Both the position numbers and the translations under genes were made by a program. From UHGV virus genome UHGV-0118819: a stretch of 42,305 bases of DNA; one strand, 5' to 3'. The stretch comes from a virus. The notes below the pieces were generated by a model. It ran no database searches and had not been told where the DNA came from. It saw only the letters and a list, made by a program, of their open reading frames with translations. This document shows positions 21,140-22,340 of the stretch, piece by piece (the first letter of the stretch is position 1; every line of letters starts with the position of its first letter).

Positions 21140-21279
21140 CCAAAAGTTACATTTCTGCATAGTGTTGAGTTTGTTCACATTCACTAAATAATGATTTTTT
21201 ATCGCTTGCTAGTTGGTTGCATGATCACTAAACTTTGCGAACTTTTAGCGCTCAGCTAACTTTGAATAAGTGGTGTATA

Positions 21280-21294
21280 GTCGTTTAAAACGAC
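21280..21294. promoter_or_regulatory. operator-like inverted repeat upstream of cassette gene 1
   Basis: GTCGTTT-a-AAACGAC (7-bp arms) adjacent to AGAGGG RBS; promoter-like TTGAAT at 21262-21267 and TATAGT at 21276-21281 nearby. Confidence 0.4.
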
Positions 21295-21307
21295 AGAGGG
21301 ATTGGGT

Positions 21308-21880
21308 ATGGCGATTAGCTACGCATTTGCGCTGGCAACAATTACACAACAAATGAATCAGGTTCAGGAAGCTGTTAACGGTGCTTTCAAACCCCTGATC
21401 TCTAATGCTTGTGAACTGCCACAACGATTAGATGCTGAAGAGGTATTTCGTCGTTGTACCGCGATTGCTGCACGCGCTCAAGAAATCGAAAATACCGCGA
21501 AGGAAGGCATGTCTCATCTCGAAGCTTTTCGAAATGGGAGAATCATTGTTGATGAGCTTCCGGAAGAGTTTTTATCCCATCTCGAAGGTCTTGCCAAGGC
21601 ATGCCGAAATGCTAAAGGACATTTAGTGGATATGTTCTCTGAAGCGGAAAGGTCCCCTATGTGGCAAGGCCATCTGCAAATGTTGCGCCCATTAAAACGC
21701 AAATATGTTCGTGCGTTGACCGCCGTCGAGAACACTGCAACTCAGTTGGCCGCTGAAGTTAGGCAATCGCAGCCTTTCCAGGCTGAACTCTTGTCAGATA
21801 ATGTTACCCGTGAAGAGGCTATTGAACTGATCTCAACATCGCATAAGATGCTGGGAGCCAACGCCCCTAAATGGATGTGA
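21308..21880 (+). CDS. hypothetical helical protein (190 aa), cassette gene 1; R-x4-H motif (RNAKGH)
   Basis: ATG 21308 with AGAGGG RBS; 2-bp gap to downstream gene; no family recognised. Confidence 0.65.
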   Translation: MAISYAFALATITQQMNQVQEAVNGAFKPLISNACELPQRLDAEEVFRRCTAIAARAQEIENTAKEGMSHLEAFRNGRIIVDELPEEFLSHLEGLAKACRNAKGHLVDMFSEAERSPMWQGHLQMLRPLKRKYVRALTAVENTATQLAAEVRQSQPFQAELLSDNVTREEAIELISTSHKMLGANAPKWM

Positions 21881-21881
21881 C

Positions 21882-22298
21882 ATGGCAAAAGTCAGTATCA
21901 CGGGAGAATTGCGTCATTTAGCTGCAGCACATAAGTATGCTCAAATGCTTGCCGATTATATTTCAAAGGGTTCCCAGTTCTGGTGTTTTGGTTCGTTAGG
22001 CGGTTTTGAACGTAACTATGATGCGATGGCTGCCAACATCAGGAAAATTCACTTAAAGCTACCTGGCGATAAACCCTGGCCTCCAGAAGCATCTCTGAGT
22101 GAACGGACATGTGATAATTTTTTGGTATATGCTCAGCATCTTTATATCGATGAACACTATCAGATATTGGCAATCATCAGCCCAAACGCTCATCAGCAAG
22201 CTGATTCGATGCTTCCCCGGCTGATAAAATTAGCAGAGGAAACCTTCATAGAACTTCCTCCTGATGAACTCGAAAAATTGAAAACCTACGATTCATAA
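21882..22298 (+). CDS. YafO-like toxin-family protein (putative), cassette gene 2
   Basis: 138 aa; by-eye motif match to recalled E. coli YafO (IHL..P.PP, S.RT.D, LVY.Q, ILAI.P..H); needs profile confirmation. Confidence 0.55.
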   Translation: MAKVSITGELRHLAAAHKYAQMLADYISKGSQFWCFGSLGGFERNYDAMAANIRKIHLKLPGDKPWPPEASLSERTCDNFLVYAQHLYIDEHYQILAIISPNAHQQADSMLPRLIKLAEETFIELPPDELEKLKTYDS

Positions 22299-22299
22299 A

Positions 22300-22321
22300 C
22301 CCGCCACCCGGCGGGTTTTTT
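22300..22321 (+). terminator. intrinsic terminator closing the cassette
   Basis: CCCGCC-ACCC-GGCGGG stem followed by TTTTTT, 2 bp after the gene 2 stop. Confidence 0.7.
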
Positions 22322-22340
22322 GCTTTCTGGAGCCTACTAA

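Follow-up and report, generated by a model that had tools for sequence, protein, structure and literature searches.

A mobile two-gene cassette in the tail region of an Escherichia coli prophage, most likely a toxin–antitoxin module of the YafO family

Introduction

Why does a prophage carry, in the midst of its tail genes, a pair of genes with a predicted promoter and a terminator of its own? This question is raised by UHGV-0118819, a virus genome of 42,305 nucleotides (nt) that was analyzed over its whole length (hereafter the window). The window represents a SEN34-like (Brunovirus) prophage of Escherichia coli, and a two-gene unit of ~1.1 kb (~21190-22330), hereafter the cassette, is found among its tail genes. 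A preliminary description of this DNA, made from the sequence alone, had proposed a toxin–antitoxin-like or abortive-infection module whose second gene encodes a YafO-like protein. The analyses reported here lead us to regard the cassette as a mobile two-gene moron and most likely a type II toxin–antitoxin (TA) module, a reading to which we give a probability of roughly 0.65. Toxicity, neutralization and an anti-phage function are properties that we infer for it. Its predicted toxin belongs to a known family; what appears to be new is the family of the putative antitoxin and the portable packaging carried by phages.

YafO is among the least understood toxins of the RelE superfamily, and its known antitoxin is YafN. 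YafO of E. coli K-12 is an mRNA endoribonuclease that is reported to cut 11-13 nt downstream of the AUG when it is ribosome-bound (PMC7781912). In one survey the partners of YafO were Phd and unclassified proteins, and no YafO was found on phages or plasmids (Leplae 2011; PMC3141249). A later survey listed 13 YafO partner clusters, 8% known (Singh 2023; PMC10790755), and a yafO-like gene was remarked in the Salmonella prophage mTmII (PMC9836087). The family of the partner protein described below and its mobility are described in none of these three papers.

The two genes of the cassette, referred to as g1 and g2, are as follows.

21308-21880, + strand: g1, 190 amino acids (aa) from ATG
21882-22298, + strand: g2, 138 aa

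These coordinates, already given in the preliminary description, agree with the sequence and with the list of open reading frames (ORFs), in which g1 is extended to a TTG at 21302. The two genes had been described as 2 bp apart; the gap is really one nucleotide (TGA-C-ATG).

g2 is a divergent member of the YafO family

The g2 protein matched the Pfam family YafO_toxin (PF13957) with a score of 62.6 bits, the cut-off being 25 (E = 4e-17), over positions 12-98 of the 101 in the profile, and also matched PHROG 1651, and proteins identical to g2 are named YafO family toxin by PGAP. It aligned end to end with K-12 YafO, with 25% identity over 125 aa (E = 5e-7), and G37, H57, R75, L81, P101, H104 and E119 are invariant in the g2 family including K-12 YafO. 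The AlphaFold2 (AF2) model of g2, with a mean predicted local distance difference test (pLDDT) score of 94.9, has a RelE/HigB-like (RelE/BECR) fold, so that this fold and conserved basic and histidine residues are found together in one protein. The YafO assignment of the preliminary description is thus borne out by a Pfam score above the gathering threshold and by the RelE/HigB-like model, and g2 is presumed on these grounds to be an endoribonuclease toxin. Because g2 scored only 31.4 bits against the K-12 YafO equivalog model (NCBIfam NF007377), whose cut-off is 153 bits, we place it in a separate YafO subfamily. No match to g2 was found in PADLOC-DB 2.0.

The cassette can be compared with yafN-yafO of K-12, a type II TA system of the dinB operon. 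The toxins are of the same family (PF13957), with H57, R75, P101, H104 and E119 in common, and a gene in the antitoxin position likewise lies upstream, at a gap of 2 nt in K-12 and of 1 nt here. The two systems differ in that the toxins are only 25% identical (31 vs. 153 bits for the equivalog), that YafN is a 97-aa protein of the Phd/YefM type unrelated to the 190-aa helical g1, that yafN-yafO lies in an SOS operon whereas here there is no SOS operon and no LexA box was found in the leader upstream of g1, and that the g1-g2 pair is carried by phages.

The partner protein g1

Although g1 matched phrog_35514 (unknown function), it is without a Pfam, NCBIfam or PADLOC family; its only match in PADLOC-DB 2.0, to Cas7_IIId at E = 0.018, was taken as noise. 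The AF2 model of g1 (pLDDT 78.7) is all-helical with five long helices and resembled only generic helical bundles in fold comparison. Profiles, model and fold comparison revealed no helix-turn-helix (HTH), ribbon-helix-helix (RHH), AbrB or Phd domain in g1. That the partner is not of the YafN type, as had been proposed, was confirmed by a probability of 0.2 when the g1 profile was compared with K-12 YafN by hhalign, and g1 had no Pfam PhdYeFM match. Searches yielded 34 clusters of the g1 family at 90% identity among 5.8 billion proteins and 14 representatives among 1.84 billion proteins, and a profile of the wider family yielded 52 clusters, all labelled "hypothetical." Every g1 cluster with a source name came from Enterobacterales. 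W119 and W189 are the only residues invariant across the wider g1 superfamily, and W189 sits in a conserved C-terminal SHxxLGxxxPKW tail of g1. We presume g1 to be the cognate antitoxin of g2.

A different role for g1 was suggested by the string RNAKGH (residues 101-106), a single R-x4-H motif in a helical protein that had been likened to HEPN RNases. If g1 were a HEPN-type RNase, the cassette would be a two-nuclease system. This reading is effectively refuted: the R is a K in several close homologues and the H is an L in one, the motif is absent from the wider g1 family, and there was no HEPN profile match in Pfam or PADLOC for the 29 + 13 g1 family members examined and no HEPN fold match. 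A match of g1 to Pfam EAD5 (E = 0.003, 17.7 bits) was below the cut-off and was given by the window protein alone among the same 29 + 13 members, and we ascribe it to chance.

Pairing and evolution of g1 and g2

We noticed that g2 lies immediately 3' of g1 in all 57 fetched g1 loci (57/57) and in the window; the g1 stop and the g2 start are separated by 1 nt in 53 cases and by 0 nt in 3, the window counted. The adjacency and co-occurrence that mark type II systems are therefore seen throughout the 57 loci and the window, with the exception of one locus with a frameshifted g1 (L059, 4001-4570). At this locus the loss of one nucleotide from a G-run (GGGGG to GGGG) shifts the reading frame of g1 after 93 codons and g2 is intact, which reflects either a sequencing error or the natural survival of a toxin gene without its partner. 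More distant YafO-like genes in IMG/VR and in phage CUS-3, with identities down to 36-39%, are preceded by a partner of 193-205 aa at the loci with an upstream region available. These distant partners match the g1 profile at E values of 1e-48 to 6e-6, and in the distant clades the partner and YafO-like genes overlap by 10-16 nt. In all, a g1-like partner of ~190-205 aa was present at every locus of the phage clade whose upstream region could be examined. The pairing of a YafO-like protein with a large partner, which the preliminary description considered unusual, is thus unusual relative to yafNO of K-12 but usual within the phage-borne YafO clade.

The CUS-3 genes ECRS218_0007/0008 and the corresponding immI pairs of P22-like phages have the same architecture as the cassette, with a protein of 193-199 aa followed by a YafO-like protein of 139 aa. 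Remote homology links the CUS-3 partner with g1 (hhalign E = 1e-4; hmmsearch E = 1e-6), and both share AExSxxW and a C-terminal SHxxxGxxxPxW. The CUS-3 pair differs from that of the window in having a toxin of 39% identity, a gene overlap of 16 nt and a position immediately behind mnt instead of one in a tail module, and in lacking a leader of the window type. It is likewise uncharacterized and had no match in PADLOC.

The g1 protein diverges 1.35 times faster than g2, and the g1 and g2 distances are correlated with r = 0.97. The ratio of nonsynonymous to synonymous substitution (dN/dS) is 0.04-0.14 for both genes (0.06-0.13 for g1), as estimated from close pairs only because dS is saturated beyond about 85% identity. 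Both genes are under purifying selection.

We read the pair as a TA module because the two genes are adjacent, co-oriented, coupled, co-occurring and mobile between unrelated contexts, and because their order is antitoxin-like gene first and toxin second. An antitoxin/toxin gene order has been given for PF_YafO (Gerdes 2025; PMC11980606).

Predicted transcription and translation signals of the cassette

The AT-rich leader upstream of g1 is 168 nt long, with a guanine-plus-cytosine (GC) content of 0.363. The following elements were located in the leader and behind g2.

21206-21234, + strand: sigma-70-like promoter, -35 TTGCTA (21206-21211), 17-bp spacer, -10 TAAACT (21229-21234)
21245-21259, + strand: palindrome 1, TTAGC-gctca-GCTAA, just 3' of the -10
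21280-21294, + strand: palindrome 2, GTCGTTT-a-AAACGAC, abutting AGAGGG
21295-21300, + strand: Shine-Dalgarno sequence of g1, AGAGGG, 7 nt before the ATG
22297-22321, + strand: intrinsic terminator from a terminator scan, stem CCCGCC/GGCGGG, loop ACCC, then T6

Transcription is predicted to start near 21241. An alignment of 27 distinct leaders from different phage contexts revealed that the -35 TTG, the 17-bp spacing and a TAnACT -10 are conserved and that the leader homology between contexts begins at the promoter. The form found elsewhere is TTGAAG-17-TACACT. A simple consensus scan misses the promoter, which by our own count agrees at 8 of 12 positions, the cut-off of the scan being 9; since the scan does not report the site, the support for the promoter is phylogenetic.

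Palindrome 1 keeps its position while its sequence varies (TTATC/GATAA, CTAGC/GCTAG, ACAGC/GCTGT, GATAAC/GTTATC). RNAalifold predicted its stem, in which two pairs are changed on both sides, and the palindrome is statistically undistinctive when taken alone. Its role may be that of an operator, or it may form a stem-loop at the 5' end of the mRNA. Palindrome 2 was found in the sequence where the preliminary description had placed it, abutting AGAGGG. All variants of its 3' arm (AGCGAC, AGCGGC) amount to U.G wobbles, on the + strand only, and in one clade it is replaced by GTCGA-TTTT-TCGAC. Perfect repeats with 7-bp arms are not unusual in themselves, the window containing 18 as against 14 ± 4 in shuffles, and the weight of palindrome 2 derives from its conservation across unrelated phage contexts. 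When the two hairpins were tested for covariation, pairing was seen in all 131 cells; given that 85 of 500 shuffles did equally well and that variation is sparse, this test does not discriminate between an RNA hairpin and a DNA operator. The predicted fold of the leader RNA was not more stable than those of shuffles (z = 0.39). As judged from the sequence, the palindromes are equally compatible with an operator and with an RNA hairpin, so that the repeat earlier labelled "operator-like," which is conserved across contexts, may be either of the two.

A purine-rich block (AGAGGG/AGAGGA/AAGGGG) is kept in the aligned leaders in front of g1. Searches of the leader and cassette against Rfam gave nothing relevant, with only a sub-threshold P9 match on the terminator, and no tandem or direct repeats of the kind found in ToxI-like type III antitoxins were found. 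It should be noted that leaders of the Pantoea type (L004, L055) and Serratia type (L010-L012) contain a terminator-like hairpin with a U-run in the ~60 nt upstream of g1. Lying between the promoter and the ribosome-binding site of g1, this hairpin could be an attenuator.

The strong terminator of the preliminary description was found as a GC-rich hairpin with a T-run; its coordinates, given there as 22300-22321, are here 22297-22321. A conserved tail, GCTTTCTG, follows the terminator and extends to 22329. A hairpin with a T-run is found directly 3' of the g2 stop in most contexts, and its stem shows compensatory variants, such as CCCACC/GGTGGG and CCCGCCGG/..GGCGG. The comparison of terminators and the alignment of leaders agree with the earlier view of a self-contained unit that has its own conserved terminator and its own conserved, predicted promoter.

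Genomic contexts of the pair

The pair was found in at least five contexts, and in most of them the promoter and terminator accompany it.

SEN34-like baseplate slot of myoviruses: 24 loci
Siphovirus tail, in the interval from the DUF6246 tail chaperone to the tape measure: adjoining variable lipoprotein/secreted genes
Flyfo siphovirus Tbat2_3: behind the tape measure
Site in front of a baseplate-J gene
A small number of sites outside tail regions
P22-like phages: immI region, behind mnt
Pectobacterium chromosome (L130-L132, 4001-5004): lone insertion flanked by an ABC transporter operon and gcvP

The Pectobacterium pair consists of a g1-like protein of 199 aa and a YafO-like protein of 139 aa, with no phage genes nearby, and is preceded by a short leader with a promoter-like TTGCTG-16-TAGAAT. 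This chromosomal site excludes a structural or phage-specific role.

In the window and at most loci the cassette has the orientation of the flanking tail genes and thus lies on the strand of the late operon. This would be expected if the two genes served the lytic cycle of the phage, with g2 as an RNase for late host shut-off and g1 as its moderator. We consider such a function very improbable, given that the cassette has its own predicted promoter and a 3' terminator, that the close relatives SEN34 and YP3 lack it, as do most E. coli prophages of the type, and that it is present at a non-phage chromosomal site. The occurrence of an autonomous unit in many unrelated places, including one free of phage genes, would also suit a purely selfish addiction module that stabilizes a prophage or chromosomal island by post-segregational killing without anti-phage benefit; the pair, moreover, matches no known defense family and is rare in E. 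coli. None of our findings speaks against this possibility, which differs from a TA module with a protective function in its physiological role and not in its molecular mechanism. Many prophage TA modules do defend their hosts, however, and we regard a purely selfish role as rather unlikely.

Several observations were made on the individual contexts. At siphovirus loci L007-L012 and L040-L058, changing small lipoproteins or signal-peptide proteins are encoded 3' of g2 and before the tape measure, and the interval between DUF6246 and the tape measure looks like a second moron hotspot. In P22-like phages (L060, 1860-2863, CUS-3; L133, 2715-3700), the pair follows mnt immediately and is itself followed by gene 16. 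In P22 this is the position of the superinfection-exclusion gene sieA, so that in lysogens the P22-like pair may be expressed together with mnt. A g1 that is 100% identical at the protein level is encoded at 11340-11909 of NZ_CP012733.1, a Shigella flexneri "plasmid" of 41,686 bp deposited as non-mobilizable. This record has the same length as L015, an IMG/VR viral contig with the cassette, and is probably this phage assembled in the form of a circular element.

The cassette occupies a variable cargo slot

The neighbors of the cassette in the window are as follows.

19719-20786: baseplate-hub gene
20786-21139: ORF of 117 aa with an N-terminal signal peptide, phrog_3443, no Pfam family, between the hub gene and the cassette
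22341: start of the spike gene

The unit does lie between the hub and spike genes, as the preliminary description stated, but the ORF at 20786-21139, whose GTG start overlaps the hub gene stop, had been missed there. This signal-peptide ORF is kept in SEN34, Yersinia phage YP3 and E. coli prophages and lies outside the cassette; it appears to be a conserved secreted protein directly upstream of the variable slot. In SEN34 its annotation begins at an internal Met and gives a length of 77 aa.

The GC content is 0.444 in the cassette, 0.489 in the window, 0.533 in the 5 kb upstream and 0.478 in the 5 kb downstream, and GC at third codon positions (GC3) is 0.42 in g1 and 0.37 in g2 vs. 0.63 in the hub and 0.60 in the tape measure genes. 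The cassette is therefore clearly below its upstream flank and only modestly below its downstream flank, so that the lower GC noted earlier by eye holds against the upstream tail genes (0.444 vs. 0.533) and only to a modest extent against those downstream (0.478).

Among 5426 complete E. coli genomes, the flanks are present in 276 and the cassette in 36-38, nearly all copies of which are at least 99% identical. The cassette is absent from SEN34, YP3 and most E. coli prophages of the same type, and the slot holds other cargo in several of them.

SEN34 (L001, 2947-3363): an unrelated 138-aa membrane-anchored protein
Yersinia phage YP3 (L002, 3096-3896): a 266-aa protein
E. coli E2348/69 (L127, 1144-2296): an overlapping pair of 256 + 131 aa
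E. coli prophages (L128, L129): DUF4282 (79 aa) and DUF2335 (190 aa)

Apart from a match of the 131-aa protein to HEPN_IX at E = 0.009, PADLOC found no known defense model in this alternative cargo. The interval from the signal-peptide ORF to the spike gene thus represents a hotspot of accessory genes, and the variable occupancy predicted for it is seen in SEN34, YP3, E2348/69 and other prophages. One of the observations named together in the preliminary description as refuting its proposal, that the two genes are conserved structural tail genes at this position, was not made, as they are absent from SEN34 and YP3 and also occur in the chromosome of Pectobacterium.

The features of a moron are all present in the cassette: a conserved predicted promoter and terminator, a GC content of 0.444 vs. 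0.533 upstream and presence/absence polymorphism. Well-known morons of tail operons are lom and bor of lambda, cor of T1 and phi80, and gp15 of HK97. The cassette is likewise an accessory unit that brings its own predicted promoter and its own terminator and is of variable presence between conserved structural genes, and its GC below that of the upstream flank is in line with this comparison. It differs in that the tail-operon morons mostly encode membrane or exclusion proteins, whereas the cassette encodes a predicted cytoplasmic RNase toxin pair.

Proposed mode of action

If the cassette is a type II TA module, a sigma-70-type promoter would give rise to one bicistronic mRNA of ~1.1 kb that ends at the terminator right after g2. 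g1 would be translated from its own ribosome-binding site and g2 by coupling via TGA-C-ATG. As a RelE-fold endoribonuclease, g2 would arrest translation by cutting mRNA, and the fast-evolving helical g1 would bind and neutralize it. W119 and W189, the latter in the SHxxLGxxxPKW tail, are probably involved in this neutralization, although their conservation is only suggestive. Once the supply of g1 stopped or g1 was degraded, free g2 would halt growth; possible triggers are an infecting phage that shuts off transcription and the loss of the prophage. The benefit would be either lysogen protection of the abortive-infection or exclusion type or stabilization of the element.

Small bicistronic units on mobile elements are also formed by other RelE-superfamily modules (HigBA-type; for addiction, phd-doc of P1), and a RelE/BECR-fold RNase toxin is common to these superfamily modules and to g1-g2. 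An abortive-infection role is documented for some relatives within the superfamily (PMC11980606). The cassette differs from such defense modules in that no defense phenotype is known for any member of the YafO family, and in that the g1 family is new and without a recognizable DNA-binding domain.

Several observations weigh against a type II TA module. In vivo, the RNase activity of K-12 YafO is comparatively weak, and it is disputed whether this toxin depends on the ribosome (bioRxiv 10.1101/2021.07.08.451724). As far as profiles and model allow one to judge, g1 has no recognizable DNA-binding domain, so that classic autoregulation is not evident, and at 190 aa it is about twice the usual size of an antitoxin. 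PADLOC gave no defense match for the pair, and the alternative cargo of the slot is uncharacterized and therefore lends no support by association. Finally, an intact g2 beside the frameshifted g1 of L059 would be unexpected if g1 were essential, unless the deletion is a sequencing error.

Some of these observations would suit another function of g1, namely that of a sensor, adaptor or activator in a two-component effector rather than of a simple neutralizing antitoxin. Recognition of a phage protein by g1 might, for example, lead g1 to set free or activate the g2 RNase or to direct it to ribosomes. A large, helical and fast-evolving protein without a DNA-binding domain would be suited to such a task, the pair is found in phage accessory slots beside variable secreted and lipoprotein morons and, in the CUS-3 type, between mnt and gene 16, and L059 tolerates a frameshifted g1 with g2 intact. 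The co-occurrence, upstream position and translational coupling of g1 are, however, equally expected of a plain antitoxin, no sensor-type domain was detected in profile scans, and the deletion in L059 falls within a homopolymer and could be erroneous. We thus view this alternative as unlikely, though less so than a purely selfish role. A combination of the two functions, in which g1, as a large helical antitoxin of a new class, also serves as a phage sensor that keeps the YafO-type RNase inactive and frees it on contact with a component of an infecting phage, is a speculative proposal that we hold to be about as doubtful. If it were true, the cassette would represent an uncatalogued abortive-infection system exchanged among the accessory slots of temperate phages of Enterobacterales.

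The comparisons show that the whole phage-borne YafO clade of Enterobacterales is tied to a conserved and unannotated partner family of ~190 aa. The unit moves among temperate phages that are unrelated to one another, in whose tail, baseplate or immunity regions it is found, and also into chromosomes. No new principle is involved, as both TA partner swapping and tail-operon morons are well known. An annotation is nevertheless supplied for a gene that genome pipelines leave hypothetical, and a defined fragment of 1.1 kb is available for testing a new antitoxin fold and for testing whether RNases of the YafO type defend lysogens against other phages.

Other features of the window

Two adjoining tRNA genes, tRNA-Asn (GTT) and tRNA-Thr (TGT), were found on the + strand at 2366-2521 of the window.

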